Source: Candidatus Moraniibacteriota bacterium
GTDB lineage: Bacteria > Patescibacteriota > Minisyncoccia > Moranbacterales > UBA2206
Assembly (NCBI GenBank): GCA_037137555.1
Contig: JBAXKA010000003.1
Coordinates: 1 to 35,782, forward strand
Reading direction: 5' to 3'
DNA: 35,782 nt
Shown here piece after piece: positions 3,756 to 35,782 of this stretch. The notes beneath the pieces are model-generated. The model did not search any database, was not told the origin of the DNA, and saw nothing but the letters and a program-made list of their open reading frames with translations. Position 1 is the first letter of the stretch. Every line of letters starts with the position of its first letter. The translations under genes were made by a program, and so were the position numbers.

Positions 3756-3844
3756 TTTTTGTTTTTTTGTTATAGTTTGAGTGTGGTTAAGTCGTGCAAA
3801 ATAGCTGAAAACATTTTGGATATAAACGCATTTTGGCGAAATGC
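3595..3844 (+). repeat. Direct repeat copy 1 (about 250 bp): 3' end of the 134-aa gene plus downstream attI-like relic
   Basis: Matches 5698-5947 at a constant offset of 2103 nt. I found no mismatches in the first ~220 nt. Three mismatches cluster at 3814-3825 and the copies diverge completely after GGCGAAA (3841/5944). Confidence 0.95.
3776..3841 (+). other. Relic of the integron Pc/attI region (attI-like site without recombinase gene)
   Basis: TTTGAGTGTGGTTAAGTC (3776-93) resembles TTTGAGTATAATTAAATC (30943-60). CAAAATAGC resembles CAAAAATAGC. CTGAAAACATTTTGGATATAAACG (3805-28) matches CTGAAAACACTTCGGATATAAACG (31002-25) at 22/24. It is followed by TTTTGGCGAAA where attI has GTTATCTGAAA. 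A second copy lies at 5879-5944. Confidence 0.6.
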
Positions 3845-7670: not shown

Positions 7671-7671
7671 T

Positions 7672-15834: not shown

Positions 15835-17670
15835 TTACTCTTTTTTAGCCTTATAAATACTCACAAAGTTTTTTGGTCTGCCATCAATATTTATTTTCCA
15901 CATAGGCTTTTCCGACAAATCCTCTTTAAGAATATTCCAAATTTTATTATTTGCTATTGCTCCCCTGCGTGTCATAACATAATAATCAATCGTATTTTCT
16001 TCTGACTTTCCCATATAATTATTATACCCAGAAGCTTGAATGCAAGTTCCATTAAAAAAATAACAGACGCCCCAATAATCTGACCAGACTTTTAAATTAG
16101 TCGAATTTGGCAAAGCATTTAAAATTTGTGCCGCTTCATAACCACCATAACCCCAAGCACCTGTGATAATCCTGTCTTTTGGTAATAAATTACTTGTATA
16201 ATTAAAATAATACGGCTTGATAAACCATAAGCTCAAACTGCTTATGCCAACAATGACTAGCACTGCTATGAATTTATGTTGCACACGATTTATTTTTCCT
16301 AAAATAAACTCATCAATCGAAAAAGCTGCGATCAACATTAATAATGGATAAAGCATCACGCTATAACGAATATTAACTAAAAGATCTTGCTTTAAAACCG
16401 CCGCATAAAAAACAATCAAAAAAACTGAAGCAGAAAAAACAATCAAAGGATATTTTAATTTTACAAATATGCCCTTAATCCATAAGGCGATGACTGAAAA
16501 TAAAACTAATGGGGTGAGAGAAAAAACTAGTGGATAAATTTCCAGAAATAATTTATCCTGAAAGTCTTGTCTGCGAAATGGATAGCTACTCCCCGCATCA
16601 AAATTCATGCCTTTTATGTTTAAAAAATTATCCATACCAAACCAGTTAAATAAAACCAAACAAAACATCGTTGCAATAATAAAAAATATTACTCTCATCA
16701 AGAACGGAAAAATCTTGTTAATTATTTTTGCCAGAAAAAACATAATTCTAGATTGCAAAAAATGAGCATCAAGATAAATCAACAAATTCAATAACATAAT
16801 AGACCAAAATATTGGTGCCATGCCCTTAAAACCAATTGTGCCGTAATAAAAAAAACTAGGGTCAACAATAACAGCTGGCATCAATATCGCGAAAACAAAA
16901 AATGAACCAGCTAAAATAGCTAAATAAGTTAATATATTTTCCTTGGCTCTTTTGGAAAAATCAAGCTGATTTTTTTCTTGCAACAGATGAATCAATATCA
17001 ACATAAAGAAAAACGGAATAAAAATAACGGCCGAATATTTACTTAAAAGTGCAAAGCCAAATAATATCGAGCATAAAATGGCATCTTTTTTTCCTCGATA
17101 TTTCAGATAATTTAAAAGTGAAATGAGTGCAGAGAAAGAAAAAATCCATAAAAGCGAATCGGGATTGATGATTTGAGAAACGCCAATAATAATCGGGTTC
17201 AATAAAATCAAAGTTACGGCGGTTAGTGCTAGCCATCTATTTTCCGTTAAGCGTTTGATTGCCCAAAAAAGAAATAGTGAAAATAATCCGTTGAAAATTA
17301 GAAGTGGCAAACGAAACGCTAGATTAATTCTTTCCGTTTCCGCGGATGTAAAATTACTTTGATAATCCGCTGTTTCAATAGTGCGTTCATGTAAATTATC
17401 TTCAAATAAAATTCCAATACCAGAAACATACGCCAACATCACTCCGGGTTTATCATTTATTCGTGTGCTTAGCCAATCATTTTTTGCAATCGCATTCCAA
17501 TAATCATGAATCCTACCTGCCGTTGGATCATACATCCAATAATGCTCATCGGCTGTTTCGAATTTTGTTATATGATAAACACCAAAAGCAAAATAAAGAC
17601 TGAGCGGTATTAAAAGCAGTAGCAAAAATTTGCTTTTTAGTTGTTTTTTTATGGATTGAATTTTTTGCAT
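15835..17670 (-). CDS. GT-C / PMT_2-family membrane glycosyltransferase (paralogue A)
   Basis: Aligns along its whole length with the upstream paralogue (FETADEHYWMY...RINDKPGVMLAYVSG vs FVSFDEHYWLY...RINDKPGITLAYVSG). I trimmed the track ORF (to 17919) to the ATG at 17670 (MQKIQSIKK...), because the extension overlaps the upstream gene. Confidence 0.8.
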   Translation of the reverse strand: MQKIQSIKKQLKSKFLLLLLIPLSLYFAFGVYHITKFETADEHYWMYDPTAGRIHDYWNAIAKNDWLSTRINDKPGVMLAYVSGIGILFEDNLHERTIETADYQSNFTSAETERINLAFRLPLLIFNGLFSLFLFWAIKRLTENRWLALTAVTLILLNPIIIGVSQIINPDSLLWIFSFSALISLLNYLKYRGKKDAILCSILFGFALLSKYSAVIFIPFFFMLILIHLLQEKNQLDFSKRAKENILTYLAILAGSFFVFAILMPAVIVDPSFFYYGTIGFKGMAPIFWSIMLLNLLIYLDAHFLQSRIMFFLAKIINKIFPFLMRVIFFIIATMFCLVLFNWFGMDNFLNIKGMNFDAGSSYPFRRQDFQDKLFLEIYPLVFSLTPLVLFSVIALWIKGIFVKLKYPLIVFSASVFLIVFYAAVLKQDLLVNIRYSVMLYPLLMLIAAFSIDEFILGKINRVQHKFIAVLVIVGISSLSLWFIKPYYFNYTSNLLPKDRIITGAWGYGGYEAAQILNALPNSTNLKVWSDYWGVCYFFNGTCIQASGYNNYMGKSEENTIDYYVMTRRGAIANNKIWNILKEDLSEKPMWKINIDGRPKNFVSIYKAKKE

Positions 17671-17680
17671 TGTTTCATTA

Positions 17681-19741
17681 TTATTCTGTGCCAATTGCAC
17701 CTTCGACTTTCTTAGCTTTAAAAACTCGCACATAATTCTTATACCGACCATCGATTTCCAGATTAAAAACTGGTTTTCCATCTTCTCTATAAATTGGTCC
17801 CACGAAATTTGGACGCAATTGATTTTGCAGTGTGGCATAAAAATAATCAATTGGATATTGTTCTGTTCTTGTTTTTGCTTTACGAATACATTTGCCAATA
17901 TAAAATTCACAAAAACCATATGAATCCGCCCAGACTATTGTATTTTTCGCATCAGGCAATTTATTCATTTCTTGGGCTATCTCATAACCACCATAACCCC
18001 AACCACTAGTAATGATATATTTTTTTGGCAAAAAATCATTGCTATAACTAAAATAATACGGCCTGATCAGCCAGATGCTTAAGCAAGCCGAACAGACAAC
18101 TAATAAATATATTACTCCGTAAGTCAAATTGCGCAACTTATTCCAGTTTATAAAAATATAAATTAGTTTTGTTGTTATAACAACCACGGAAATAACAATC
18201 AATGCAAAAATAATTCGGTGAAAATTATAAAAAATTCGCAAATTTGCTTCACTAATAATTTTAGCTTGTTCAAAAGAAGATGTCATAAATAAAAGCAGGA
18301 TTATTGAAAATAGCAATGCGAAAAAAATTAAAAATTTTCGCGAATCTTTATGTTCTTTTTCTTTTTGGGCTATAAAAAAATTCTCCAGCGCAATCGCTGA
18401 AAGCAAAGCAGAAATAGGAAAAAGAATAATACTATAACGAATAGTCAAAACCAAGCCTTGCTTAATTACTGCTAGATAAAAAATAAAAATAAAAGCTGAT
18501 AAAATAAATGTCAAATATTCCTGCTTAATTTTTTGAAAGATACTTTTTGACCAAAGATAAATTAAAGAAAATAAAATTATTGGCAAAGAAGCAAAGGCTA
18601 ACGGCACGGTTTCCATAATGAATTGAGAGCTTAATGGCAAATTGCCAAACTCTGGTTTTCGTTTCATATCAAAAGAAATATCTGAAAGATCAATCAAGCG
18701 ATGACGAAGCATCCAATTAATTAAAACGATGACAATACTAGAAAGCAATAATAATGCAACTAATTTTGGCGCATTTTTTTTGACAAATTGCAATTTTTCT
18801 AATAAATAATATAAAATTTTATTTTGATTAAAATAAGCATCCGCCATAAGTAGCAAATTGACCAACATTGAAAACCAAAAGATTGGAGCCATACCGGGAA
18901 AACCAATCGTGCCGGCATAAAAAAATTGTGGCTCAACAAAAACAGCTGGCATCATTAAAGCAAAAATCAAAAAACCGCCAAAAACAATTCCCAGATAAGC
19001 TAAGCTGTTTTTTAAAACGAGCGCTTTTAATTTTTCTGCTTTATTTGTCCAACCAGAAAATTCAAATAAATAAAAAGCTAACAGCATAAAAAGAAAAAAC
19101 GGAACGAGAATAACACTCACATATTTGCTCGCCATAGACAAACCAAAGAAAAATAGCGTTAGCCAAAAATATTTTTTTTCAGTTTGCAAGAGCCAAGCCG
19201 CAAAAGTCAACATCGCCGCGAAAGCAAAAATCCAAAACAACGAATCCGGATTAACAATTTGCGAGATCCCAATAATCACAGGAGAAAGATATATTAAAGC
19301 AACTGCCAAAAGTGCCAGCCATTCATTCTTTGTGATCTTTTTAATGATCCAGAAAAAATAAAAAATAAAAAAACCAGTCGTCAACAAGATTGGCAAACGA
19401 AAGAGAAAATTAATTTTCTCTGTTTTTTGCGGATCAAAAATTTTCACGGTTTTATCTGTAAAAATCACATGTTCATCTACGATATTATTATCAAAAAGCA
19501 ACGCCAGTCCGGAAACATAGGCGAGTGTAATTCCTGGTTTATCATTGATTCTTGTTTTTTCCCAATCCCCTTCGGCAATTGCTTTCCAATATTGATGGAT
19601 TCGATCATTATCCGAATTATACAACCAATAATGTTCATCAAATGAAACAAACTTAGTCAGATGCGTAAATCCAAAAAAGAAATACACAGCCAAGACAACT
19701 AACAATAAAAATTTAATTTGATATTTTTTTTTAATCAGCAT
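17681..19741 (-). CDS. GT-C / PMT_2-family membrane glycosyltransferase (paralogue B)
   Basis: 686 aa. DEHYW loop motif, many TM helices, and a conserved C-terminal domain (GWGYGGYE...). It is in tandem with paralogue A, 10 nt apart. Confidence 0.8.
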   Translation of the reverse strand: MLIKKKYQIKFLLLVVLAVYFFFGFTHLTKFVSFDEHYWLYNSDNDRIHQYWKAIAEGDWEKTRINDKPGITLAYVSGLALLFDNNIVDEHVIFTDKTVKIFDPQKTEKINFLFRLPILLTTGFFIFYFFWIIKKITKNEWLALLAVALIYLSPVIIGISQIVNPDSLFWIFAFAAMLTFAAWLLQTEKKYFWLTLFFFGLSMASKYVSVILVPFFLFMLLAFYLFEFSGWTNKAEKLKALVLKNSLAYLGIVFGGFLIFALMMPAVFVEPQFFYAGTIGFPGMAPIFWFSMLVNLLLMADAYFNQNKILYYLLEKLQFVKKNAPKLVALLLLSSIVIVLINWMLRHRLIDLSDISFDMKRKPEFGNLPLSSQFIMETVPLAFASLPIILFSLIYLWSKSIFQKIKQEYLTFILSAFIFIFYLAVIKQGLVLTIRYSIILFPISALLSAIALENFFIAQKEKEHKDSRKFLIFFALLFSIILLLFMTSSFEQAKIISEANLRIFYNFHRIIFALIVISVVVITTKLIYIFINWNKLRNLTYGVIYLLVVCSACLSIWLIRPYYFSYSNDFLPKKYIITSGWGYGGYEIAQEMNKLPDAKNTIVWADSYGFCEFYIGKCIRKAKTRTEQYPIDYFYATLQNQLRPNFVGPIYREDGKPVFNLEIDGRYKNYVRVFKAKKVEGAIGTE

Positions 19742-25794: not shown

Positions 25795-26619
25795 TTAATT
25801 AACTAAAAAACTTTTTTTTGTTTCCTTGTTTGTCAGTAGTGATTTCATCTGAATAATCGCAGTAATATTTAATTTTTGAATTCGATCTTCAGAGGACAGT
25901 CCATCGCGAATCAACAATGCATTGATACTTTCGAGGTTTGATAAAACCACGAGCTGTTCGATTGAAGCGTAATCTCTAATATTTCCAACTAATTTTCTAT
26001 TTTGATCTCGCCATATTTTTGCAGTTATTCCAAACAAAGCAACATTTAGTAAATCCGCTTCGCTGGCATATTGCATATTAATTTGGTTTTTAGTTAATTC
26101 TGGCGGGATCAATTTCTCTTTTATGGCGTCAGTATGAATCCGATAATTTACTTTTGCCAAAGTTCTTTGAAAACTCCACTCAAGTTTTAAATTATTTGAT
26201 TCACTATCTTTAAGACGCTGAAATTCTTTGATCAGATATATTTTGAATTCAGCGCTAATCCACATTCCGAATTCGAATGCAATATCTTTATGCGCATATG
26301 TTCCGCCATATCTTCCAGTTGTCGCCTTTAATCCTATGGCATTAGTTTTTTCAACCCAGTCCTTTGCACTTATCTTATAATTATTTAAACCGGCCTTACT
26401 TTTAATTATGGCGAATTCGCCATAATTAAAAGCTGGATTATAAATACTTTCCCAAATCCCTATAAATTCAACCGTATTTCTATTTCGAAGCCAGTCAGAA
26501 ATGAAAAAATCACCATCTTTTGCTTTAAGCATGTCCGTCAAAGAAATATAATCATCACCATGATATTTAACGATGGTGATTTCACTTCCTTTTACAATAA
26601 TTTTCGTTTTCTTTGGCAT
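25795..26619 (-). CDS. KilA-N domain-containing protein
   Basis: YISLTDM...WLRNRNTVEFIGIWE...GRYGGTYAHKDIAFEFGMWISAEFKIYLIKEFQRLK is the familiar bacterial KilA-N family pattern. I chose the start at ATG 26619 (MPKKTKIIV); the track start 26652 overlaps the upstream gene. Confidence 0.8.
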   Translation of the reverse strand: MPKKTKIIVKGSEITIVKYHGDDYISLTDMLKAKDGDFFISDWLRNRNTVEFIGIWESIYNPAFNYGEFAIIKSKAGLNNYKISAKDWVEKTNAIGLKATTGRYGGTYAHKDIAFEFGMWISAEFKIYLIKEFQRLKDSESNNLKLEWSFQRTLAKVNYRIHTDAIKEKLIPPELTKNQINMQYASEADLLNVALFGITAKIWRDQNRKLVGNIRDYASIEQLVVLSNLESINALLIRDGLSSEDRIQKLNITAIIQMKSLLTNKETKKSFLVN

Positions 26620-26629
26620 ATACTTTTTT

Positions 26630-27682
26630 TTAAAACAAAACCGAAATGTCATCTGGGGAATTTTTTTCTAAATTATTTTCGAAATCTTTCAACTCGTTAT
26701 TTTTAAATTCCACTTGACCAGTTGCCTTATTCCAAAAAAGATCTTTTGCGAAAATATGAATGTCAAAATCTTTGATATATTTATCCAACCAACCAGCAAA
26801 ATTATTCGTGCGCACAAAGATTTGCTTCAACTGAACTTTTTCCGCATCATCCTCACTTTTTCTATCTTCCAGAAAAATAATATGATAACCCAGTGAGCTT
26901 TCAATTATTGCACTTCGTTCGCCCTTTTTTAGACCAAAGACAACCTGAGCTATTTCCGGCAACATTTCTGATCCGCTAAACCAACCCAATTCGCCATCAC
27001 TTTTAGCACTCTCACCTTCAGAATATTTTCGAGCAACATCAGCGAAAGTTTTTTTCTCAGTCAATTCTTTTTGAGCCAAAGTTATCTTATTTTTTGCTTC
27101 CGTTCTGGCTTTATCATTTTCTTTGATATTTTCAAATAATTTTTCTTGATACATATCCGGCTTCACAATATTTTCTTCAAAATCTGCTATTGTCCAACCA
27201 TATAATTTTGTTAAATTATTTTTAAGATATTCTTCACTACCATATTCTTGCATTTTTCGAGAAACTGCTTGAGAAATATCTTCCGGATTTATCGTCAAAC
27301 CTCTTTTTCTGGCTTCATTTTCAATTAGTTTATTTTCAATTAATTTATTTAAAATATTTTTTTCTTTAATTCGCAATCTTTTTTTTCCGTCCTCTGTTGC
27401 AAAATCAACACGCAAACCAAGCTCGGAAAAATCTTGATTTTCATAAAACATTCTGGCAGAATCCAGTTGACTTTTCAATTTATTTTCACTAATAAAATTT
27501 GTGCTCCAACTAGCCACGGGATAAGGCACAATCGCTGTGGTTTTTCGGGTCAATTTATTATCCACATTAAAACCATAAATTAAAATTGCGATTATGCTAA
27601 AATATAAAAACAAAAAAAACAAAAGGCTCAATATTATTGTGAGTAGTTTAATTTTTTTTAGATTAGCTTTTTTTTGCATCAT
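26630..27682 (-). CDS. Parvulin-type peptidyl-prolyl cis-trans isomerase (PrsA/SurA-like), membrane anchored
   Basis: GELGWFSGSEMLPEIAQVVFGLKKGERSAIIESSLGYHIIFLEDR is a PPIC rotamase signature, with an N-terminal TM helix. The track start 27691 is TTG; the first ATG is at 27682. Confidence 0.85.
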   Translation of the reverse strand: MMQKKANLKKIKLLTIILSLLFFLFLYFSIIAILIYGFNVDNKLTRKTTAIVPYPVASWSTNFISENKLKSQLDSARMFYENQDFSELGLRVDFATEDGKKRLRIKEKNILNKLIENKLIENEARKRGLTINPEDISQAVSRKMQEYGSEEYLKNNLTKLYGWTIADFEENIVKPDMYQEKLFENIKENDKARTEAKNKITLAQKELTEKKTFADVARKYSEGESAKSDGELGWFSGSEMLPEIAQVVFGLKKGERSAIIESSLGYHIIFLEDRKSEDDAEKVQLKQIFVRTNNFAGWLDKYIKDFDIHIFAKDLFWNKATGQVEFKNNELKDFENNLEKNSPDDISVLF

Positions 27683-28310: not shown

Positions 28311-30095
28311 TTATTTTTTTAAAACCGCCAAAAAAGCTTCCGACGGAATCGCCACCTTGCCAATGTTTTTCATTTTCTTCTTGCCTTTTTTTTGTTTTTC
28401 CAAAAGTTTTCTTTTTCTGGTAATATCACCACCATAGAGGCCACTAATCACATCTTTGCGAAAAGCTTTAACGGTTTCTCGTGCTAAAACTTTCCCACCA
28501 ATAGCCGCTTGAATAGCAATTTGAAAATTTTGTCGCGGAATAGCCTCTTTTAATTTTTCCACAATCCGCTTACCTTCACTATGCGCCCAAATTTTTGGCA
28601 CAATTCGTGAAAAGGCTTCCACTTTTTCCTCGGCAATAATAATATCTAATTTCACAAGCTCATTGGCACGATAATCAGACAATTCATAATTCATTGACGC
28701 ATAACCAGAAGAAGCACTTTTCAGATCATCATGCAAATTCGTGATCACATCCGTCAGCGGACAATTAAATTTCAAAATCATTCGTTCACTATTTAAATAT
28801 TCCGTATCGAGATATTCCGCCCGCGTATTTTTCATCATTTCCATAATCGCTCCTAAATAATTAGACGGAGAAATAATTTCCAGATGCACATACGGCTCAA
28901 AAATCGCTTCAATCACTGAAGGATCTGGCAATTCCGAAGGAGAATAAACTTTCAATCTTTTTTCTTGACTTTTTCCGGTTAATTGAATTTCATAAACAAC
29001 ACCTGGCGTGGTAATAGTTGGACTCAACTCAAATTCTTTTTCCAATCGCGCTTGAATAATTTCTAAATGCAAGAGACCCAAAAATCCACAACGAAAACCA
29101 CGACCAAGTGCCAAGTTGCTTTCCGGCTCAAATACAAAAGCCGCATCGTTTAATTTCAATTTTGAAAGTGCATCCCGCATTAAATTATAATCATCCCCAG
29201 AAGTGGGATAAAAAGAAGCATACACCATCGGACTGACTTCACGATAACCTGGCAATTTTTCAATTTGTTTTTCAAATTTAGAAATCGTGACTGTATCACC
29301 AACCTTGCAATATTCCACACTTTTGAAACCAGTAGCGATATAACCAATTTCTCCCACTTTCAATTTCGCAGTTTTTTGAAAATCCGGCTTGAAATATCCC
29401 ACCTCAATCACATCACTTTTCGCTCCCGTCGCCAACATTAAAATTTCTTCTTCCGCTGAAATTCCCCCATCAATTATTCGCACATACGCCAAAACGCCTT
29501 TATAAATATCATATTTAGAATCAAACACCAAAGCACGCAATGGCTTATTTTCATCACCACTTGGAGCAGGCACAACTTCCATAATTTTTTGTAATAATTT
29601 CTCCACGCCCGCACCAGTTTTGCCTGACACTTCCAAAATATCTTCTTTTTTGCAACCAATAATATGCATAATTTCCGCTTTAGTTTTTTCCACATCAGCA
29701 TTCGGCAAATCAATTTTATTCGCCACAGGAATAATTTCTAAATTATGTTCAATCGCTTGATATAGATTAGCCAATGTCTGAGCTTGCACACCTTTCGTCG
29801 CATCAACTAAAATCACTGCACCTTCCACAGCGGCCAGCGATCTCGAAACTTCATAACCAAAATCCACATGCCCTGGCGTGTCAATTAAATTTAAAATATG
29901 TCCAGCATATTCCATGCGCACCGGTTGCATTTTAATCGTAATCCCCCGCTCTCGCTCAAGATCCATCTGATCAAGCAACTGCTCTTTCATTTTGCGCGCC
30001 TCAACCGTTTTAGTAATTTCCAACATACGATCAGCCAGCGTGGATTTGCCATGATCAATGTGTGCGATAATACAAAAATTTCGAATATTTTTCAT
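28311..30095 (-). CDS. lepA: Translation elongation factor 4 (LepA)
   Basis: 594 aa. NFCIIAHIDHGKSTLADRMLE G1 motif, DTPGHVDF, NKID, and the LepA-specific C-terminal domain. Confidence 0.95.
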   Translation of the reverse strand: MKNIRNFCIIAHIDHGKSTLADRMLEITKTVEARKMKEQLLDQMDLERERGITIKMQPVRMEYAGHILNLIDTPGHVDFGYEVSRSLAAVEGAVILVDATKGVQAQTLANLYQAIEHNLEIIPVANKIDLPNADVEKTKAEIMHIIGCKKEDILEVSGKTGAGVEKLLQKIMEVVPAPSGDENKPLRALVFDSKYDIYKGVLAYVRIIDGGISAEEEILMLATGAKSDVIEVGYFKPDFQKTAKLKVGEIGYIATGFKSVEYCKVGDTVTISKFEKQIEKLPGYREVSPMVYASFYPTSGDDYNLMRDALSKLKLNDAAFVFEPESNLALGRGFRCGFLGLLHLEIIQARLEKEFELSPTITTPGVVYEIQLTGKSQEKRLKVYSPSELPDPSVIEAIFEPYVHLEIISPSNYLGAIMEMMKNTRAEYLDTEYLNSERMILKFNCPLTDVITNLHDDLKSASSGYASMNYELSDYRANELVKLDIIIAEEKVEAFSRIVPKIWAHSEGKRIVEKLKEAIPRQNFQIAIQAAIGGKVLARETVKAFRKDVISGLYGGDITRKRKLLEKQKKGKKKMKNIGKVAIPSEAFLAVLKK

Positions 30096-30101
30096 AAATT
30101 G

Positions 30102-30917
30102 TTATTCTAGTGGACTTTTAATTTTCCTTAACATCGGATTAGTCACTTTCGTATAAATCTGGGTTGTTCTAATGTTAGCATGCCCTAGCAATTCTTGCAC
30201 GAAACGAACATCTACGCCATTTTCTAACAAATGCGTTGCAAAACTATGACGCAAAGAATGAAATGTCGCCTCTTTTTTAATTCCCGCTTTTTTGAGTGCA
30301 GTTTCAAAAACTTTTTGTGCAGTTCTTTCGGTTAATTTTCCACCGCGTTCACTAGCGAAAATATAATCATTGAGTTTTTTGTTTGCAATTAATTTTTCAA
30401 CATCACCAATTAGTTTTTCCGGCAAAAGTGTTATCCGATCTTTATTTCTTTTAGCGTCTTTAATGTGAATCGTCAATTCCGCCAAACAAACATCTTTAAC
30501 TTTCAAATTAATAATCTCACTCACCCGCAAACCACCAGAATAAGCCAAAGCAATCATCAAATTATGTTTTTTATTATTAATTACTAGCAATATTTTTTCA
30601 ATTTCAGCGCGAGAAAGCACAATCGGTAACTTGCTTGGAGTCTTGGCAAAGCGCACATCAATTTTTCCCCGAAATTTCAAAACATTCCAGCAGAAGAAGT
30701 TAATCGCTTGCAAATTCTGATTAGACATCTGCGATGATTTCCCCTCATCTATTTTTGACAAAATATACTGCTTAATAAAATCCACATCAACAATTTCAAA
30801 ATTATTCTGTTTAGCTTTTAAATAATTAGTAACACAATAAGTATATGCACTGATAGTTTTTGGACTATATTTTCTCAATCGCAATTCATCATTTAGTTTT
30901 TTTAAGTAAAAATCCAT
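30102..30917 (-). CDS. Tyrosine site-specific recombinase, integron-integrase-like but lacking the IntI-specific insertion
   Basis: 271 aa. R (GGLRVSE), HSLRHSFATH (HxxR) and LLGHANIRTTQIYTKV (H, Y). SAM-like N-terminal domain (YSPKTISAYTYCVTNYL) and a ...KSPLE C-terminus. It is divergent from the cassette array. Confidence 0.85.
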   Translation of the reverse strand: MDFYLKKLNDELRLRKYSPKTISAYTYCVTNYLKAKQNNFEIVDVDFIKQYILSKIDEGKSSQMSNQNLQAINFFCWNVLKFRGKIDVRFAKTPSKLPIVLSRAEIEKILLVINNKKHNLMIALAYSGGLRVSEIINLKVKDVCLAELTIHIKDAKRNKDRITLLPEKLIGDVEKLIANKKLNDYIFASERGGKLTERTAQKVFETALKKAGIKKEATFHSLRHSFATHLLENGVDVRFVQELLGHANIRTTQIYTKVTNPMLRKIKSPLE

Positions 30918-30925: not shown

Positions 30926-30954
30926 TTGACACATTATTACAATTTGAGTATAAT
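30926..30954 (+). promoter_or_regulatory. Pc-like cassette promoter, perfect sigma70 consensus
   Basis: TTGACA (30926-31), a 17-nt spacer, then TATAAT (30949-54). It points into attI and the cassette array. Confidence 0.65.
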
Positions 30955-30957: not shown

Positions 30958-30986
30958 ATCATACAGAATATTCACAAAAATAGCAA
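30958..30986 (-). promoter_or_regulatory. Candidate recombinase promoter (Pint-like), face-to-face with Pc
   Basis: On the minus strand: TTGCTA (30986-81), a 17-nt spacer, then TATGAT (30963-58), about 40 nt upstream of the recombinase ATG (30917). Confidence 0.45.
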
Positions 30987-30998
30987 TATTATGCATGC

Positions 30999-31037
30999 TA
31001 TCTGAAAACACTTCGGATATAAACGAGTTATCTGAAA
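30999..31037 (+). other. attI-like site: two direct TATCTGAAA boxes; inferred crossover G|TT at 31027/31028
   Basis: TATCTGAAA occurs at 30999-31007 and at 31029-31037. The second box is part of GTTATCTG (31027-34), the exact reverse complement of cassette 1's inverse core CAGATAAC (32349-56). Confidence 0.65.
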
Positions 31038-31139
31038 TTTGCTTTTTCTTTTCGCCTATCGGCGACGCATTTCTGTAATGAATTAATTGAATTTATTTAT
31101 TTTAAAAGGGGGTATAAGGAAGAAAACTTTATTAATATT

Positions 31140-32222
31140 TTGAATACAAATATGGAAAAATTCTCACCAGAATTAGTACAAGCGCAAACTGAGGCTCTTG
31201 ATATTCAAAAAAAAGCAAAAGAGGAGAAAGAAAAGAAAGGAGAAGTCGGAAGTTTAAGCAACGAAGATTATGAGAATGCTTGCCTGCCCCGCGTTGAAAG
31301 TTATGAGAAATTTTTGGAGGAAAATACAAAACTAGAATCCTTCGTTGATCACATTGAGCAAAACTCCCCAAATGGCGAAATAAATATATACAGTCCTGAA
31401 TTTTGGTATTCCTATCAGAAATTTATTGAAACTGTTTGGACAAAAGAAGGATTGGCACAATTAAACAGTAAGGACTACGAGGATTTTGAAGATTATAGAC
31501 ATGATTCCAATAAAATGCGAAAACCGATTGATCATGTTTTTTCTAACGGTGCATCTATTTTCAGGGGTAACGAACATTTCAATAGAATAAAACAGCGTTC
31601 TCTTTTGAATACTTTAAATAAAAATGGCATATCTACTGAAAACCTGCAAACCATAAAAGATTCATTTGCACATTATTATCGTAGCGATGGCGGCTATGGA
31701 CCAAAAAATATTAGCAAAAGTGCCTTGGAGCAATCGTACTTACAACGAATTGAGGCAGTCAAAAAATTGAACCAAAGTCAAGAACTATCGAAAATAACCG
31801 AAATCTGGGATGAATACGGATTACTTGATTCTCTATCTAGCGAGGTCAGCACATGTTTTGGCGGGCGCAACGAAACGCCAATTATAAGAAAGATAAGAGA
31901 GAAGCACAAAAATTCTTTTAAGGAAAAAAAGTTTAAAGAAATTGAGTTAGCTATAGTTGAAACAATTACCTTAAACGGACTAAAGGATAGCTTTTTATTA
32001 ACAAAAGAGTATGACAAATTAATTGAAATAGAGAAAAAAGACCCAAATTTAATAAAATCAGCTATTGCTGGAACATCCGCCCTCACCTTTGTTGTACTTA
32101 CTTCCAATATAGTCTCAACAGTAGTTGGAGACGCTTACGCATACACCCCAATAGGTGCAGTTCCAAATATTGATAGTATTTCTCGCGAGATGAAAGAGTT
32201 TTGTTGCGACGTAGAAGAGTAA
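31140..32222 (+). CDS. Cassette 1 ORF: hypothetical protein with C-terminal TM helix
   Basis: 360-aa ORF (TTG in the track; first ATG at 31152, MEKFSPEL...). The N-terminus is charged and the C-terminus has a hydrophobic segment, SAIAGTSALTFVVLTSNIVSTVVG. No motif recognised. Confidence 0.6.
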   Translation: MNTNMEKFSPELVQAQTEALDIQKKAKEEKEKKGEVGSLSNEDYENACLPRVESYEKFLEENTKLESFVDHIEQNSPNGEINIYSPEFWYSYQKFIETVWTKEGLAQLNSKDYEDFEDYRHDSNKMRKPIDHVFSNGASIFRGNEHFNRIKQRSLLNTLNKNGISTENLQTIKDSFAHYYRSDGGYGPKNISKSALEQSYLQRIEAVKKLNQSQELSKITEIWDEYGLLDSLSSEVSTCFGGRNETPIIRKIREKHKNSFKEKKFKEIELAIVETITLNGLKDSFLLTKEYDKLIEIEKKDPNLIKSAIAGTSALTFVVLTSNIVSTVVGDAYAYTPIGAVPNIDSISREMKEFCCDVEE

Positions 32223-32228
32223 TAAGGA

Positions 32229-32281
32229 GTCTTTGTTTCTGGGCATTCACCCCTTAATCCCCTCTGCCCAAAAACAAAGAC
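32229..32281 (+). other. Stem-loop with conserved C-rich loop after the cassette 1 ORF (homologue of 8473-8527)
   Basis: GTCTTTGTTTCTGGGC (32229-44) pairs with GCCCAAAAACAAAGAC (32266-81) at 15/16 bp. The loop is ATTCACCCCTTAATCCCCTCT. The stem sequence differs from the 8.5-kb copy while pairing is kept. Confidence 0.7.
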
Positions 32282-32348
32282 AAAATTCAATTAATTCATT
32301 ACAGAAATACTATTCCTCTGCTGAGGAATGAAAAGAAAAAGCAAACAT

Positions 32349-32437
32349 CAGATAACACGGCATATCTGGTTACGGCTTTTTACAAAAGCCTCCACCCAAA
32401 TTGCTACGCAACTTCAGATATGCCGAAACGTTAGCTG
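32349..32437 (+). other. attC-like site 1 (89 bp)
   Basis: R'' CAGATAAC; P1 GGCATATCTG (32359-68) pairs with CAGATATGCC (32415-24); P2 GGCTTTT/AAAAGCC; conserved CCACCCAAATT (32392-402); R' GTTAGCTG (32430-37). Confidence 0.75.
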
Positions 32438-33815
32438 AAATAAATTTTTATCTTTGTAGTAATTTCAAGTTCTGTGCGTTGATCAAAGACGAAAATTTGA
32501 TTTTTTAAATTAAAAGTTTTTTCCGCTTCGCGGATTATTTGGGGGCAATTTTATTTTTTATTTTAAATACAATATGATGAACAAACAAATCAACACCGCT
32601 TTGGCGATTGCGGTAATAATCATAATCGCTGGAATTGCGGGCGGAACAATTTATACAAACATTGCGAATAACAATCCGGCCACAATTATTCCTGTAATCA
32701 ATAAAACTCAACAAAACAAAGTTATTAGCAAATCTTCAGATGATATTGCTATAGGCAAGTCATGTGATGCTCGTAATTTAAAATCCTACAACGGTGGCGG
32801 AGAAATTGCAGCCACAAAAGGTTTACAATGTTATATGTACGACGACCTTTCTGACAGAATGCTTAACAATGGCAAGTGGATTTATCCGAGCGGCAAGGAA
32901 ACGGTTCGCAAGGGCGTTTGGGTTTATCCGAATCATATGAGCATACCGATATTCTTAGCCCAAGAAAAACCTTCCTTGTTTGATACGGTTTCAATAAATG
33001 ACCTTACACAAAACTGGAAGTTATACGATAATTCCAACGGTAATTATAGTTTTAAGTTTCCGAAACAATGGGAAGTAAAAAAAGACGCTTCAAATGCAAA
33101 CCAATTGACAATAGAAAAAATAAATACGACCGAAGCAAATACTATATTCGCAACAATCACATATTATCCGAATGCTAAATTCGAAACTACAGATGATTAT
33201 CAAAATATTAACGAAGCTCCAGATGATTGGCTTGTGCCTGACAATTCTACTGACACATTCATCCTTACTCGCCATTTTGATTTAAATGGCGCTACTGCAC
33301 TCTTAGTCGAAAGAATGAATAATTTTGACTTGGGTGGAAGTTCTTATGGCGAAACAATTTTTGTCACTAAGCCAAATTCATATTTTACGATTGAATATAC
33401 AAAATATCAGGACGCCGATATTGATTTGCCAGTAGAGATGTTAATTAAAACCTTACGGTTTAAATAACATCTTATAAAAAAATAAGGAAGAAAAATAAAA
33501 AATAAAATTGCCCCCAAATAATCGTTTTGCCATTCGGCAAAACAAAAACTTTTAATTTAAAAAATCAAATTTTCTTTACGATAAGCAAAGTTTATACTGT
33601 TAAAGACGAAGATAAAAATTTACATCAGCTAACACGGAGTAAACGGTTCAGAAATTTTTCAATATTAATAATTAGAGGAGTAAAAAATTTCTTCACCCAA
33701 ATTCGTTTTCCTTAGTCAGTGCCATTATCAAGATTAGTGCATTTAATATAATTCCGTTAAGATAACAAAGTTTAATCAATTAAGTCGGAAAACGAACTTC
33801 GTTTACTCCGATACG
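32431..33815 (+). mobile_element. Gene cassette 2
   Basis: Opens TTAGCTG and ends at G of GTTATGTG. The IR arms are 32430-32564 and 33492-33633, including perfect 31-bp (32491-521/33544-74) and 32-bp (32533-64/33492-523) blocks. Confidence 0.75.
32574..33467 (+). CDS. Cassette 2 ORF: secreted/membrane-anchored hypothetical protein
   Basis: 297 aa. N-terminal signal-anchor (ALAIAVIIIIAGIAGGTIY) and then a soluble domain. No motif recognised. Confidence 0.65.
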   Translation: MMNKQINTALAIAVIIIIAGIAGGTIYTNIANNNPATIIPVINKTQQNKVISKSSDDIAIGKSCDARNLKSYNGGGEIAATKGLQCYMYDDLSDRMLNNGKWIYPSGKETVRKGVWVYPNHMSIPIFLAQEKPSLFDTVSINDLTQNWKLYDNSNGNYSFKFPKQWEVKKDASNANQLTIEKINTTEANTIFATITYYPNAKFETTDDYQNINEAPDDWLVPDNSTDTFILTRHFDLNGATALLVERMNNFDLGGSSYGETIFVTKPNSYFTIEYTKYQDADIDLPVEMLIKTLRFK

Positions 33816-33822
33816 TTATGTG
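33626..33822 (+). other. attC-like site 2 (197 bp)
   Basis: R'' CAGCTAAC; P1 GGAGTAAACG (33636-45) pairs with CGTTTACTCC (33800-09); P2 33650-59/33683-92; conserved TCACCCAAATT (33693-703); P3 CGTTTTCC (33704-11) pairs with GGAAAACG (33787-94); R' GTTATGTG (33815-22). Confidence 0.75.
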
Positions 33823-34957
33823 AAATACCCAGAAATTTCTTTATTCATTTTTAAGATTTTTTTGGCGAATGCACGGGTCGAATAACTCAGATATAAATAA
33901 TTAAAATTAATTTTAAAAAACAAAGTATGAAAAACAAAAGAGGAAACGTTGCCGTAATTGCGCTTATCATCGTTATTGTGGCAATTACAACAGGCGTAAT
34001 CACTTGGCTTATCGCGACAAAAACACAAGCGCCAGTTCAGCAGGCAGTTGTAACTCAACCTGCGCCAGTTGCAAAAACACAGCCAGTAGTTCAATCTACC
34101 ACGCCAACTGCACAGTCAACACCAGCTAGCGATGTGAGTAAACAGGGCATTAAAGAATATAAATCAGGGAATACATTCAGTTTTAATTATCCTTCTCAAG
34201 TTTGTGATCCTGAAAGTAAAAAATGTTATCCGATTGTGTTGTCTGAAGATAAATCAGTAATCACACTAAATGCTTCAGAAGGTGGTTTATTTAAGATTTA
34301 TTATGGTACAAATATTACTGATGATAAATCAGCTAATAATTTCTTACAAACCACATTGAAGAACGGACTATGCAAGATTGATACAACTGAAACTAATATG
34401 CTACAAGGAACAACGATTAAAAATGTTTTCTTAGATGGAGGTTGTTCTCTTTATGGTCCTGCATATGAAAAATATTCTTCTGCTCATCCGGATGCAATTG
34501 GCTTAGCTGGAAAAAATAGGGCTTATTGGGCAACTGATAGCAAGGAAATGATTGTCTATGTTCTTGGTCAGGGAGGTGGTTGTTCATTTCTTGATTGTGA
34601 ATTGGAAGGAAAAATATCAGAAAGTATTAACCTTGGTGGAATCAATGTATTTGATAAATCTATGAGTGGAATTTAAAAACAGTGTCGCAAAAGAAATAAT
34701 TTTTTGAATTCATAAATGCAATTCGCCAAAAAATACATTAAGGAGGAAGAAATTTCTGGGTACATCACATAACAGCCCATATCTGGCTACAGGAAATTGA
34801 CGCTATTGAAAACAATATTGAGTGTCAATTTCCCTCCGCCCAAATTTTCATCCCTTAGTTTTGATGAAGGTTTAGGTGGAGTTCATCAAAAAATATATCA
34901 GCCTATAATCAAAGTCTATCCTATAAAACGGGATGAAAACTTCAGATATGGGCAACG
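33816..34957 (+). mobile_element. Gene cassette 3
   Basis: Opens TTATGTG and ends at G of GTTAGGCG. The IR arms are 33815-33872 and 34718-34773, with a perfect 16-bp block at 33826-41/34747-62. Confidence 0.75.
33927..34676 (+). CDS. Cassette 3 ORF: membrane-anchored extracytoplasmic protein with P/T/Q/V-rich linker
   Basis: 249 aa. N-terminal TM (VAVIALIIVIVAITTGVITWLIA), the linker QAPVQQAVVTQPAPVAKTQPVVQSTTPTAQSTPA, and a Cys-containing globular domain. Confidence 0.65.
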   Translation: MKNKRGNVAVIALIIVIVAITTGVITWLIATKTQAPVQQAVVTQPAPVAKTQPVVQSTTPTAQSTPASDVSKQGIKEYKSGNTFSFNYPSQVCDPESKKCYPIVLSEDKSVITLNASEGGLFKIYYGTNITDDKSANNFLQTTLKNGLCKIDTTETNMLQGTTIKNVFLDGGCSLYGPAYEKYSSAHPDAIGLAGKNRAYWATDSKEMIVYVLGQGGGCSFLDCELEGKISESINLGGINVFDKSMSGI

Positions 34958-34964
34958 TTAGGCG
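34766..34964 (+). other. attC-like site 3 (199 bp)
   Basis: R'' CACATAAC; P1 CCCATATCTG (34776-85) pairs with CAGATATGGG (34943-52); P2 AGGAAATTGAC (34791-801) pairs with GTCAATTTCC (34824-33); conserved CCGCCCAAATT (34836-46); P3 TTTCATCCC (34846-54) pairs with GGGATGAAA (34930-38); R' GTTAGGCG (34957-64). Confidence 0.75.
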
Positions 34965-35072
34965 AAAAAACTAAAAATTTCCTCTCTATTTTTGAAAAGA
35001 ATTTTTGGCAATTTTGCTCGGTCGATAACTCGGTATATAATTAAGATAAGTTTAACAAATTAAAAAAAAATT

Positions 35073-35627
35073 ATGAAAAAAGTATTAGCAATAAGTTCGG
35101 TGTTGCTTGGAGTCGTCTTTTTGGCTGGGTGTGGTCAACAGCCGGTGAGTCAAACGCAGCCAACAACGCCAGCTCCCATAGTGAAACAGCCAGCAACTAC
35201 TCCTCCGGTCGCAACTCAACCAGCGCCAACAACTCCAGCCGTCACTCAAAATTACATTGAAGTAAAAGAATTGGGATTCAAGATTCCCGTTGATGCCTCA
35301 AGCGCAAATGAGATAACTTACAAAATTACACAAGTCACAAAAGACAGTCCAACTCCTGGCGTGTACTTTTCAACCAAGGAGCTAAACTCAATGAGTAAGG
35401 ATTGCGAAGAAGGATCGATTGGGGCAATTTCAAAAGTGTCTGGCAAAGTATCCACAGATCCTAATTCAGAAAATTTCATGCCAGGAGAAATAAAACAACT
35501 CCAAGGTTTTTCACTGGTATTTCAGACTCCTCAAGCCCCTTGTCACTCCGGCGACAACTCTCTGGATAGAAAATTTATGCAAATCCTTGAAACTGGATTT
35601 AAAAATGCGGTTCTACTTGGTCAGTAA
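35073..35627 (+). CDS. Cassette 4 ORF: lipoprotein with P/T/Q-rich linker
   Basis: 184 aa. Signal peptide with lipobox (VFLAGC|GQQ), the linker QPTTPAPIVKQPATTPPVATQPAPTTPAV, and then a globular domain. Confidence 0.7.
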   Translation: MKKVLAISSVLLGVVFLAGCGQQPVSQTQPTTPAPIVKQPATTPPVATQPAPTTPAVTQNYIEVKELGFKIPVDASSANEITYKITQVTKDSPTPGVYFSTKELNSMSKDCEEGSIGAISKVSGKVSTDPNSENFMPGEIKQLQGFSLVFQTPQAPCHSGDNSLDRKFMQILETGFKNAVLLGQ

Positions 35628-35674
35628 ATTGCCAAAAATTCTTTATCATTAAGAATGGAAATTTTTAGTTTCAT

Positions 35675-35782
35675 CGCCTAACAACGCATATCTGGCTACA
35701 GGAAAATCACTCAAATATATTCAAAGGATGTGATTTTCCCTCCGCCCAAATTTTCATCCCTTAGTTTTGATGAAGGTTTAGG
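35675..35782 (+). other. attC-like site 4 (partial)
   Basis: R'' CGCCTAAC (35675-82), the reverse complement of the cassette 4 opening GTTAGGCG; P1 5' strand GCATATCTG; P2 AGGAAAATCAC/GTGATTTTCC (covaries with site 3). The rest is near-identical to site 3 up to the window edge. Confidence 0.7.

Follow-up and report, generated by a model that had tools for sequence, protein, structure and literature searches.

The stretch of DNA analysed here, 35,782 nt long and referred to below as the window, contains an array of gene cassettes that is real and that is specifically linked to the family of the tyrosine recombinase encoded beside it. On the strength of sequence comparisons, we consider it likely that a CPR/Patescibacteria bacterium here carries a gene-capture platform of the integron type, which would be composed of a 271-aa recombinase, an outward promoter, an attI-like site and co-oriented cassettes that each end in an attC-like palindrome. 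We found no description of integron-like arrays in CPR/Patescibacteria in the literature. The original prediction, of a minimal IntI-related or Xer-like enzyme with a cassette array, has thus gained substance: the array and its oriented sites are tied to the enzyme family, which falls near IntI in a rough tree. The features are as follows.

3792..3841, plus strand: weak attI-like tripartite site (attI HMM 15 bits, E 0.02)
28311..30095, minus strand: lepA, 7 nt downstream of the recombinase gene and on the same strand; a backbone gene outside the mobile system
30102..30917, minus strand: tyrosine recombinase of 271 aa (ORF, motifs, Pfam); a simple tyrosine recombinase (YR) of Xer-like length, without the IntI insertion
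30926..30954, plus strand: predicted sigma-70 consensus promoter (TTGACA, 17 nt, TATAAT), a perfect consensus match only
30962..31039, plus strand: attI-like site (attI HMM, homology break, covarying palindrome)
31028..32430, plus strand: cassette 1, ORF 31152-32222 (356 aa, no Pfam match) and attC1
32346..32441, plus strand: attC1, R'' CATCAGATAAC (32346-32356), A, L'' CGGCATATCTG (32358-32368), loop, L' CAGATATGCCG (32415-32425), AAAC, R' GTTAGCTGAAAT (32430-32441)
32431..33815, plus strand: cassette 2, ORF 32574-33467 (297 aa, N-terminal TM helix, weak PsbP-like match) and attC2
33623..33826, plus strand: attC2, R'' CATCAGCTAAC, L'' CGGAGTAAACG (33635-33645), 154-nt loop, L' CGTTTACTCCG (33800-33810), ATAC, R' GTTATGTGAAAT (33815-33826)
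33816..34957, plus strand: cassette 3, ORF 33927-34676 (249 aa, N-terminal TM helix) and attC3
34763..34968, plus strand: attC3, R'' CATCACATAAC, L'' GCCCATATCTG, loop, L' CAGATATGGGC, AAC, R' GTTAGGCGAAAA (34957-34968)
34958..35782, plus strand: cassette 4, ORF 35073-35627 (184 aa, lipoprotein-type signal peptide); the window end cuts attC4
from 35672, plus strand: 5' part of attC4, R'' CATCGCCTAAC; the site ends at about 35877 in the source contig

Four cassettes thus lie in the window; the source contig, which ends inside attC6, has at least six. By a strict scan, the window has three complete sites where about 0.6 are expected, and a half-site scan found no attC-like sites in the other 31 kb. 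The sites share a common plan, an imperfect palindrome in which nnnTAAC and an 11-nt box are followed by a loop, the complementary box and GTTAnnn; the outer boxes match the canonical RYYYAAC in only part of the sites (e.g., GCCTAAC). When covariation was counted on stem-anchored columns, the cognate 11-bp stems had a mean of 1.34 mismatches and 20 of the 32 were perfect, with 22 distinct stem sequences, whereas non-cognate pairings had a mean of 5.05 mismatches and none of 956 was perfect. The L boxes are poorly matched in 7 of the 32 sites; a single bulged base explains some of these, and others resemble hybrids. The fold z-scores of the sites range from -2.3 to -5.6 (-4.4 and -5.6 for attC1 folded as single-stranded DNA, -5.3 for attC3). 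In the folded form, most of the spacer is paired and contains an asymmetric internal loop (1 x 3-4 nt); a TT bulge, and sometimes a bulged G (attC4, attC5), is located on the 3' arm of the sense strand, and the stem runs 20-135 nt past the R boxes. The two ends of cassette 2 complement each other along about 135 nt (32430-32564 with 33492-33633). G.T and A.C pairs are about equally frequent in the stems (8 vs 7), and these counts do not point to either strand as the one that folds. Only the hairpin brings the R and L boxes together into a core-like site, with a central region of about 6 nt; in the duplex form, an L'-R' pair lies 8-9 bp apart.

The recombinase gene diverges from the array, and the promoter points from the recombinase side into the array, which is the position of the Pc promoter in integrons; its region is conserved in relatives, and lepA is the conserved flank of the locus in the closest of them. 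The attI-like site consists of the palindrome TATCTGAA-AACAC-TTCGGATA (30999-31019), followed by TAAACGA and by G|TTATCTGAAAT (31027-31038). The palindrome is of the canonical 8-5-8 core-site type and covaries. The crossover, in our reading, lies between 31027 and 31028, some 110 nt from the recombinase start on its upstream side. With the attI HMM, about 40 CPR loci each yield a single strong match, whose distance upstream of the recombinase gene is always 40-115 nt, and in about 29 loci homology stops at GAGTT|(A/G)nnn. The same boundary is visible in comparisons with three syntenic loci (L001, L005 and L006), in which a shared backbone from 19.7 to 31.03 kb ends at 31029-31039, with unrelated cassettes beyond. 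The weak site at 3792..3841 may be a secondary target of the recombinase, although its link to the system is tentative; it is part of a direct repeat of 250 nt, with copies at 3595-3844 and 5698-5947, that flanks genes for T5orf172 and Fic/DOC proteins. Rfam and tRNA scans of the window gave no matches.

The link between the sites and the recombinase family was assessed with half-site HMMs that had been trained on a subset of these loci. In 46 genomes of CPR species, 98 half-sites scored 12 bits or more; all of them are upstream of the recombinase gene and on the predicted strand, with none on the other strand or downstream, despite there being twice as much downstream sequence (P = 3e-47; 58 of the matches were not training sites). 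Of the 27 loci whose contig extends 600 nt or more past the recombinase gene on the upstream side, 26 have sites. In 18 of the 46 genomes the contig ends within 330 nt of the gene on this side, and in none of them does it end so near on the downstream side. A metagenome scan seeded on the site alone returned at least 120 loci; 12 of these carry a relative of the recombinase, and the half-sites of 11 of them, 61 in total, all lie where predicted, the overall outcome of this test being 61 vs 3. The same kind of sites is present upstream of an insertion-less relative of the recombinase in a Pacearchaeota locus. Among the non-CPR relatives, a relaxed hairpin scan, which is too noisy to generalise from, gave 82 matches upstream vs 52 downstream, with no clear repeat family in one locus (L058); another (L053) has ACGTTG-type repeats downstream of its recombinase gene. 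Viral contigs yielded one distant match only and, judged from these searches, the recombinase module is not phage-borne. The original prediction had named as its opposing case a housekeeping XerC/D kept beside lepA in array-less relatives; what we found is that synteny with lepA is restricted to the closest subclade and that, as stated above, nearly all loci with sufficient upstream sequence have arrays.

The cassettes themselves carry sequence signatures of site-specific mobility, with a putative crossover at G|TTA. First, the triplet in R' of a preceding site (n-1) equals that in R'' of site n in all four cases within the window and in 21 of 27 across loci (3.6 expected), whereas R' and R'' of the same site agree in only 2 of 32. 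Second, a NUDIX cassette is shared by two loci (L009 and L015) with 86.6% identity over 844 nt; it has G|TTA at both edges, and its neighbours differ. A crossover within the R''-L'' half-site, such that the ORF would move with its upstream palindrome, was rejected on account of the homology break at attI and the edges of the NUDIX cassette. The cassettes are 342-5795 bp long and mostly contain a single ORF, 24 of 25 being oriented away from the recombinase; the single ORF facing the other way belongs to one cassette of L008. Their contents are of the accessory and defence type (NUDIX, HD, SMR/EamA, VanW, a type IIG restriction-modification enzyme and Shedu SduA). When the four cassette proteins of the window were compared with 80 related loci by tblastn, a signal peptide was the only shared element.

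The recombinase has the catalytic residues R131, H220, R223, H246 and Y255, within the motifs YSGGLRVSE (R131), AKRNKDRITLLPEKL (155-169), HSLRHSFATH (H220, R223) and LLGHANIRTTQIYTKV (H246, Y255), with KSPLE at its C-terminus. The length of 271 aa, the RHRY set and the motifs quoted in the original prediction were all found in the ORF, the spacing of about 60 residues between the hairpin and HSLRH was counted as 59 (D160-R161 to H220), and both of the Pfam domains proposed for checking match the protein (PF00589, 2e-44, and PF13495). The predicted resemblance to IntI at both termini is borne out as well. The NCBIfam IntI profile TIGR02249 gives a match in two pieces, in which residues 5-180 correspond to profile positions 2-180, followed by a jump; a second IntI profile, NF011946, aligns residues 194-270 with positions 251-327. 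Similarly, phmmer aligns residues 5-180 of the recombinase with 6-184 of VchIntIA (2a3v) and residues 195-270 with 242-317, so that about 57 residues of VchIntIA stand opposite about 14 of the recombinase. A motif SP(L/F/I)(D/E/S) located about 12 residues past the catalytic tyrosine is common to the recombinase and the IntIs and absent from XerC, XerD and XerA.

The segment specific to IntI is missing, as had been predicted. A MAFFT alignment of the recombinase with IntI1, ten IntIs of the Vibrio/Pseudoalteromonas type and XerA/C/D revealed IntI insertions of about 32 aa and about 11 aa (about 43 aa together) that the recombinase lacks, as do XerA/C/D. We hold the insertion to be absent because the profile matches, the phmmer alignment with 2a3v and the MAFFT alignment agree independently. 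In an AlphaFold model of the recombinase (pLDDT 83.8), residues 178-196 form short strands and a loop, without an extra helix. With 201.8 bits for TIGR02249 (curated cut-off 265) and 123.5 for NF011946 (cut-off 435), the protein scores below both IntI models and, therefore, a detector demanding an IntI-specific domain would not call it; detectors of this type would be expected to overlook such enzymes. In a rough neighbour-joining (NJ) tree, the insertion-less clade that holds the recombinase joins IntI, apart from XerA/C/D, with 98.5% bootstrap, while the recombinase itself lies outside the IntI clade. On the question of phylogeny raised with the original prediction, the enzyme falls, as far as such a tree goes, with IntI and is not nested within XerC/D, and on this rough tree the insertion-less recombinase would be the closest outgroup of IntI.

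These observations suggest the following mechanism. The 271-aa recombinase, as the probable catalyst of cassette exchange, would bind half-sites of the TTCnn(n)TA type. Strand exchange at G|TTA would join attI to the R' box of an attC in insertion, and two attCs to each other in excision, with the cassette leaving as a circle. The consensus promoter would drive the expression of the inserted cassettes. The attC site probably reacts as a folded single strand, a substrate that we propose because the core-like arrangement of R and L boxes exists only in the hairpin. XerCD recombines the folded hairpin of the CTX phage without any IntI insertion, and a single-strand reaction without the I2 insertion would therefore have a precedent; by this analogy, the proposed chemistry appears to be feasible without I2. 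It should be noted that the IntI insertion has been described as essential for integron function and for the recognition of folded attC (PMC8138268, PMC7790495), and its absence means that chemistry on folded attC cannot be assumed. In addition to cassette capture, the recombinase may resolve chromosome dimers at the attI palindrome, a function that would be compatible with a capture platform.

Such a function leads to the alternative that survives best, although we regard it as improbable, namely, that the recombinase is a single housekeeping Xer of the 'Cand' type that replaces XerC/D, that the adjacent site is its dif, and that the cassettes are IMEX-like hitchhikers, their capture being a by-product. 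CTX and TLC phages pile up at dif in Vibrio in such a manner. The recombinase is colinear with the XerA structures 5hxy and 4a8e in phmmer comparisons, and its score with the XerA_Arch model NF040815 is 210.7 bits, close to the cut-off of 220, while it stays far under the cut-offs of the XerD and XerC models. It is highly conserved and single-copy at every locus seen, and the window contains no second tyrosine recombinase. The covarying 8-5-8 palindrome in attI could serve as a dif, and a dif beside the gene is a hallmark of XerS and XerH (PMC5357621). Moreover, the 'Cand' simple YRs, which are Xer-related and come from Candidate phyla, have been treated as Xer substitutes (Smyshlyaev et al. 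2021, PMC8138268). Taxonomy and architecture of the recombinase fit this subgroup, to which we liken it by the subgroup's description; the presumed Xer substitution is the only function given there, and associated sites or cassettes are unmentioned (PMC8138268). However, the inserted units are neither phages nor islands but co-oriented, mostly single-ORF cassettes near the promoter, each with its own structured palindrome, as in integrons, and there are many sites in arrays instead of one dif of 28-31 bp per chromosome. In addition, we place the crossover at the R' half-site downstream of the palindrome and not within it. The identities of recombinase and LepA are discordant, which is unexpected for a strictly vertical gene: relative to this locus, L005 and L006 are 96% identical in LepA and 83% in the recombinase, while L004 is 61% identical in LepA and 85% in the recombinase. 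A weaker point, which comes from the 36-57 kb available, is that genes diverge from the attI point, where the cumulative GC skew also reaches a local minimum; this does not resemble a terminus. The housekeeping explanation is compatible with a dual role of the enzyme and differs from a capture platform mainly in emphasis.

A second alternative, to which we give very little credence, is DNA inversion of the shufflon or phase-variation type, in which the recombinase would flip single surface-protein genes on and off. Inverted repeats of 20-135 nt, with recombinase half-sites within them, do flank each cassette, several cassettes of the window encode membrane or secreted proteins, and the oppositely oriented ORF in L008 would agree with flipping. 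Nevertheless, all other cassettes have one orientation, and the inner palindrome, i.e., the L boxes and the loop, would have no role. Since syntenic genomes differ wholly in content and one cassette recurs in different surroundings, insertion and excision, and not inversion, are required. Finally, that the palindromes are ordinary terminators or REP-like repeats lying by coincidence next to an unrelated Xer or phage integrase remnant is the least credible explanation: the elements are intergenic hairpins, some of them near T-rich runs, and the region contains a few terminator-like matches, though no more than shuffled sequences do; but neither the biased position and orientation of the sites in both tests, nor the circular permutation of R' and R'' with homology breaks exactly at G|TTA, nor their confinement to the array within the window would be expected of terminators.

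The interpretation as an integron-type capture platform has several implications. Integrons are the textbook gene-capture system, and the I2 insertion is held to be the innovation that converted a Xer-like double-strand recombinase into a single-strand attC recombinase. The widespread combination of integron-type cassettes and attC-type sites with an insertion-less enzyme bears directly on this view, and such a system would make the origin of integrons experimentally testable, the questions being whether the enzyme acts on folded or on duplex sites and what replaces the recognition of extrahelical bases. CPR bacteria would, in addition, join the hosts of integron-like gene capture; as episymbionts with tiny genomes, they would gain from the exchange of surface and defence genes. 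Furthermore, the system points to a blind spot in integron detectors demanding an IntI-specific domain, and insertion-less systems of this kind may explain orphan attC arrays in archaea. A tentative and rather doubtful extension is that the CPR platforms and their DPANN and Bacteroidota relatives, which adjoin insertion-less recombinases, form a sister or ancestral grade of integrons ('proto-integrons'), in which one Xer-type enzyme would resolve dimers at the attI palindrome as well as capture cassettes bearing hairpins. If this were true, recombination of folded attC would neither need nor post-date the I2 helix, and the enzymes acting on many attC arrays without IntI (CALINs), most archaeal ones among them, would belong to this overlooked class.

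Among known systems, XerA, XerS and XerH resemble the recombinase in having an N-terminal SAM-like domain and a catalytic domain, in size and in lacking the insertion, and their half-sites of about 11 bp likewise surround a short central region. The recombinase gene adjoins its site in XerS/difSL and XerH/difH (PMC5357621), whereas the dif of XerA is not adjacent to xerA (PMC2958812). The present locus differs from these systems in its ordered array of long structured palindromes with variable loops that bound mobile ORFs; XerA and XerC/D are, in addition, split from the recombinase in the rough tree and are without the C-terminal SPL motif. IMEX, such as CTX with XerCD, share the insertion-less Xer-type enzyme, the reaction of a folded hairpin with a duplex site, and tandem accumulation, but as phages or islands they bring replication or transfer genes of their own and use the host dif at the terminus, and they are not minimal cassettes under a common promoter. 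CALINs are clusters of attC sites without IntI and include most archaeal 'integrons' (Ghaly et al. 2022, PMC9668308). They resemble the present locus in having attC-type arrays without a recognisable IntI; here, however, one recombinase family consistently adjoins the arrays, which are therefore not orphan. Integrons differ in that none has been described in CPR and in that their enzyme has the insertion of the I2 helix region, whereas the recombinase lacks it and scores below the cut-offs of both IntI models. Canonical attC sites have, in the folded bottom strand, a symmetrical unpaired spacer and two extrahelical G/T bases, whereas the spacer here is mostly paired, with its asymmetric internal loop, and the stem continues far beyond the R boxes; the extra bases on the sense-strand 3' arm would be the mirror image of the canonical arrangement in the VchIntIA-VCR structure. 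The missing insertion may, as the original prediction had it, account for the different geometry of the sites. In most other respects, the likeness to integrons is close. In both cases, a tyrosine recombinase is divergent from the array, with an outward promoter in between, and a conserved attI, with extra direct or inverted binding elements and a G|TT crossover, lies next to the recombinase where arrays of different content start. A cassette consists of one ORF and a 3' imperfect palindrome, whose outer boxes include the canonical GCCTAAC/GTTAGGC and whose inner boxes are variable in sequence yet complementary, and each cassette begins with bases that belong to its own 3' site. Families of attC are shared within a lineage, the content is accessory or defensive, and assemblies break at the array. 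The enzyme itself, finally, groups with IntI in the rough tree and shares its C-terminal SPL motif.

The recombinase is a tyrosine recombinase in which Pfam detects a PF00589 (Phage_integrase) catalytic domain (2e-44) and an N-terminal SAM-like domain (PF13495). The motifs quoted in the original prediction are all present in the 271-aa ORF, and the spacing between the KDR hairpin and HSLRH is 59 residues, where about 60 had been given. The central claim, that the protein lacks the IntI-specific insertion, is borne out by two-piece profile matches, by alignments with VchIntIA and IntI1, and by an AlphaFold model, all of which agree. TIGR02249, the IntI profile, aligns as two separate pieces with part of the profile skipped between them, and positions 251-327 of NF011946 align to residues 194-270. 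Relative to the sequence of the VchIntIA crystal structure (2a3v), residues 5-180 correspond to 6-184 and residues 195-270 to 242-317, so that about 57 VchIntIA residues lie between the two aligned blocks versus about 14 in the recombinase; archaeal XerA (5hxy, 4a8e) is colinear with it. When IntI1 from plasmid pEC22-NDM-5 and ten proteins named 'integron integrase' were aligned, these carried insertions of ~32 aa and ~11 aa, both missing in the same alignment from the recombinase, its relatives, XerA, XerC and XerD. The AlphaFold model (pLDDT 83.8) has no additional helix at the insertion position.

Foldseek returns IntI (2a3v, 8.8e-15) and XerA (5hxy, 1.3e-14) as tied, and the NCBIfam scores are 210.7 for XerA_Arch (cut-off 220), 201.8 for IntI although the segment is missing (cut-off 265), 174.7 for XerD and 168.9 for XerC. 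Members of the family are numerous in CPR and strongly conserved (72-93% identity, all about 271 aa, among the best 120 clusters). We built a neighbour-joining tree from 270 gap-poor columns with 200 bootstraps; it is rough, being a distance method with limited sampling, and because its columns are gap-poor the insertion indel does not drive it. The CPR recombinases and the IntIs each form a single clade (100% bootstrap for both), and the two alone group together in only 2.5% of bootstraps, the CPR recombinases not falling inside IntI. Insertion-less proteins taken more widely, from CPR, DPANN archaea, Bacteroidota and Firmicutes, cluster with IntI to the exclusion of the XerA group and E. coli XerC/D (98.5%); as a set of their own, they are monophyletic in only 60%. 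A C-terminal SP(L/F/I)(D/E/S), ~12 residues past the catalytic tyrosine, is common to the insertion-less set and the IntIs and is missing from XerC, XerD and XerA. The rough tree supports the view that the recombinase group comprises the closest relatives of IntI while standing outside it, as either an ancestral grade or a sister group, and the NCBIfam scores are in line with this.

The locus is laid out as follows.

30102-30917, minus strand: recombinase, 271 aa (ORF reading)
30926-30954: putative sigma-70 promoter, perfect consensus match, pointing outward from the recombinase
30999-31038: ...TATCTGAA-AACAC-TTCGGATA-TAAACGA-G|TTATCTGAAAT, the end of a conserved attI-like region
31152-32222: cassette ORF 1, co-oriented with the other three
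32574-33467: cassette ORF 2, co-oriented
33927-34676: cassette ORF 3, co-oriented
35073-35627: cassette ORF 4, co-oriented

The elements between the cassette ORFs (96-206 nt) share a single layout, in which CATCnnnTAAC and an A precede a box of 11 nt, a loop separates this box from its complement, and nAAC and GTTAnnnGAAAT close the element. Among the conserved outer boxes of these attC-like sites is the canonical integron pair GCCTAAC / GTTAGGC, and the inner boxes vary in sequence from site to site with complementarity kept within each site. Folded as single strands (z-scores -2.3 to -5.6), the sites form an R helix, then an internal loop of 1 x 3-4 nt, an L helix of 11 bp and a branched tip that varies. 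The array runs past the window in the source contig (L084; window-equivalent 35783-40917), where attC4 is completed. Cassette 5 there has two small ORFs, and cassette 6 (3.65 kb) carries a gene for an 809-aa PEP-utilising enzyme (PPDK_N) and a 282-aa ORF; its R'' outer box (CACATAAC) matches R' of attC5, and the contig terminates within attC6.

Such sites are associated with the recombinase well beyond this genome. With half-site HMMs built from 20 sites, 98 strong half-sites were found on the predicted strand, upstream of the gene, in 46 CPR loci from species-representative genomes (P = 3e-47; 58 of the 98 are not training sites), and none on the opposite strand or in the twice as much DNA downstream. 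Where at least 600 nt of upstream sequence is available, 26 of 27 loci have sites, and in about 40 loci an attI HMM gives exactly one strong hit each, located 40-115 nt upstream of the recombinase. The contig ends within 330 nt upstream of the recombinase in 18/46 loci and that close downstream in 0/46; one-sided breaks of this kind are what assembly usually produces at a repeated, strain-variable array. A reverse test seeded solely with the 3' half-site motif returned at least 120 metagenomic loci, 12 of them with a recombinase relative, and in 11 of these 12 all 61 half-sites are positioned as predicted.

Four lines of evidence, read from the sequences, argue for the array units being mobile cassettes. 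First, the variable triplet that follows GTTA at a cassette start exactly complements the one preceding TAAC at that cassette's own 3' end (4/4 in the window; 21/27 across genomes vs 3.6 expected), and it matches the site where it is physically located in just 2/32. A circular-permutation signature of this kind classically defined integron cassettes. Second, the inner stems covary: cognate ones have 1.34 mismatches on average (20/32 perfect, with 22 different stem sequences), versus 5.05 for non-cognate stems (0/956 perfect). Third, the window and three related loci (L001, L005 and L006) are collinear starting at 19.7 kb and across lepA and the recombinase, until similarity breaks off at 31029-31039, the G|TTA of attI, past which the sole matches are attC-type fragments. 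Fourth, L009 and L015 have in common a NUDIX cassette (844 nt, 86.6% identity) whose similarity runs from the upstream G|TTATCGG to its own ...AACG|TTA, with unrelated adjacent L' boxes and downstream triplets. Given these boundaries, the mobile unit is an ORF plus its own 3' palindrome, as in integrons. The same boundaries rule out a crossover within the R''-L'' half-site.

The serious rival is that the recombinase is the organism's single Xer, with dif beside its gene and the cassettes as IMEX-like passengers. In XerS/difSL and XerH/difH, dif likewise lies next to the recombinase gene (PMC5357621), and 'Cand', a subgroup of simple tyrosine recombinases from Candidate phyla, is presumed to replace Xer (PMC8138268). 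The attI region moreover contains a covarying 8-5-8 palindrome of core-site type, TATnnGAA-AACAC-TTCnnATA (30999-31019; at the equivalent position in 25 loci), whose variable dinucleotides are complementary in 17/25 loci vs 8.5 expected. This palindrome is a candidate duplex core or dif-type site, with the cassette crossover 8 nt further on. However, minimal single-ORF cassettes under one promoter, an inferred crossover outside the palindrome, and a divergent gene layout that is not terminus-like all speak against Xer/dif as the whole story, as do recombinase identities discordant with LepA: across 28311-30917, LepA is 96% and the recombinase 83% identical to L005 and L006, versus 61% and 85% for L004. 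The discordance points to a recombinase-attI module that was exchanged laterally, or replaced by another allele, at a conserved position. The recombinase may have a dual role in Xer/dif and cassette capture, the window having no second tyrosine recombinase. Inversion (shufflon-like) of cassette-flanking repeats and ordinary intergenic hairpins are both contradicted by the positional statistics and the boundary evidence.

Taken as mobile cassettes, 25 units across loci measure 342-5795 bp, and 24/25 are directed away from the recombinase. They encode accessory and defence products of a typical kind: NUDIX, HD, histidine phosphatase, VanW, PLP enzyme, SMR/EamA transporter, a type IIG restriction-modification enzyme and Shedu SduA. 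Large multi-ORF cassettes with anti-phage genes were seen at L002 10915-14658 and L045 10988-16782 (both read away from the recombinase); the genes are for a protein like Shedu SduA and for a type IIG restriction-modification enzyme like Eco57I/MmeI. The window cassettes code for uncharacterised membrane, secreted or lipoprotein-type products. Cassette ends are also complementary for 20-135 nt past the R boxes (score 21.6 for cognate vs 9.6 for non-cognate ends), and 23/25 cassettes in relatives score above the controls' 95th percentile. The pairing of 32430-32564 with 33492-33633, in cassette 2, is nearly perfect, and the other complementary ends in the window are:

31024-31094 / 32283-32359
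33815-33841 / 34747-34773
34957-34987 / 35652-35682

The arms are kilobases apart in the array; in an excised circle, their complementarity would lengthen the attC stem considerably. We know of no equivalent in canonical integrons. Certain sites, in which the L boxes do not match, resemble hybrids.

The half-sites follow the pattern TTCnn(n)TA. On the 5' arm of the folded attC, ~6 nt lie between the R box (CnnnTAAC / GTTAnnnG) and the conserved L part (TATCTGG / TTCAGATA), and the central region would be the variable, paired portion of the inner stem. The 3' arm has 3-4 extra bases plus a TT bulge, and a bulged G occurs in attC4, attC5 and some others, which recalls the extrahelical G of canonical attC sites. 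In attC4 (35672-35782 plus L084) and attC5, this single G lies on the inner-stem 3' strand (CAGAT[G]ATGCCG vs CGGCATATCTG); The observation extends to L039 and L006, the bulged base in L006 being an A. In the VchIntIA-VCR structure, the canonical extrahelical bases appear to be on the opposite arm from the extra bases here. On duplex DNA, 8-9 bp separate L' from R', a long spacing for the core of a tyrosine recombinase; this favours, without proving, a folded-strand reaction, in which the folded attC strand would react with attI in duplex form and replication would then resolve the product, as it does in integrons. The CTX-phage hairpin is recombined in its folded form by XerCD, which has no IntI-type insertion, so such chemistry is feasible. 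The I2 helix, in the region of the insertion, is described as recognising attC via extrahelical bases (PMC7790495; PMC8138268; canonical attC features are described in PMC7439510), and a recombinase without it must use something else for recognition.

Several other features of the window were observed. Genes for T5orf172 (3924-4526) and Fic/DOC-HTH (4607-5671) proteins are flanked by the two copies of a 250-nt direct repeat (3595-3844 and 5698-5947, 98% identical). Both copies finish with a tripartite attI-like site (3792-3841; attI HMM 15 bits, E 0.02), and the few differences between them are located in the arm that resembles L'. The arrangement could reflect secondary targeting by this recombinase, or else an IMEX-like insertion. 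Directly past the second site, 5948-6062 resembles the start of the first cassette of L002 (GC-rich hairpin GGGCAATCGCCC), and 8465-8539 is similar to 32221-32285, the 3' flank of cassette 1; the ORFs at 6078-8466 may be a fossil cassette without a recombinase nearby. Two long minus-strand ORFs (15835-17919 and 17681-19741; 694 and 686 aa) have a 239-nt same-strand overlap, which may be real or may come from a frameshift or an artefact of start-codon choice. KilA-N domain proteins are usually phage-associated; one is encoded at 25795-26652 (minus strand) in the conserved backbone, between a PPIase/SurA-like gene and housekeeping genes.

Our literature search found no description of integron-like arrays in CPR/Patescibacteria, and the protein group to which the recombinase probably belongs is known solely as 'Cand', with no sites or cassettes assigned (PMC8138268). 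In archaea, 6 IntIs (insertion present) and 539 attC sites are reported from 75 genomes (PMC9668308), which means that most of those arrays are without a recognised integrase. Three sites of the present type lie upstream of an insertion-less relative in a Pacearchaeota locus (L057), ACGTTG-type repeats lie downstream of another in Cytophagales (L053), and two canonical-looking sites lie near one in Bacteroidales (L072); the canonical XerA loci L073-L075 have no attC-like sites. The system differs from integrons in the insertion that defines IntI, which was tested for and is missing, and on this account we do not file it in the integron family as currently defined. Its architecture is integron-like, and its recombinase and cassettes probably operate by an integron-like mechanism.
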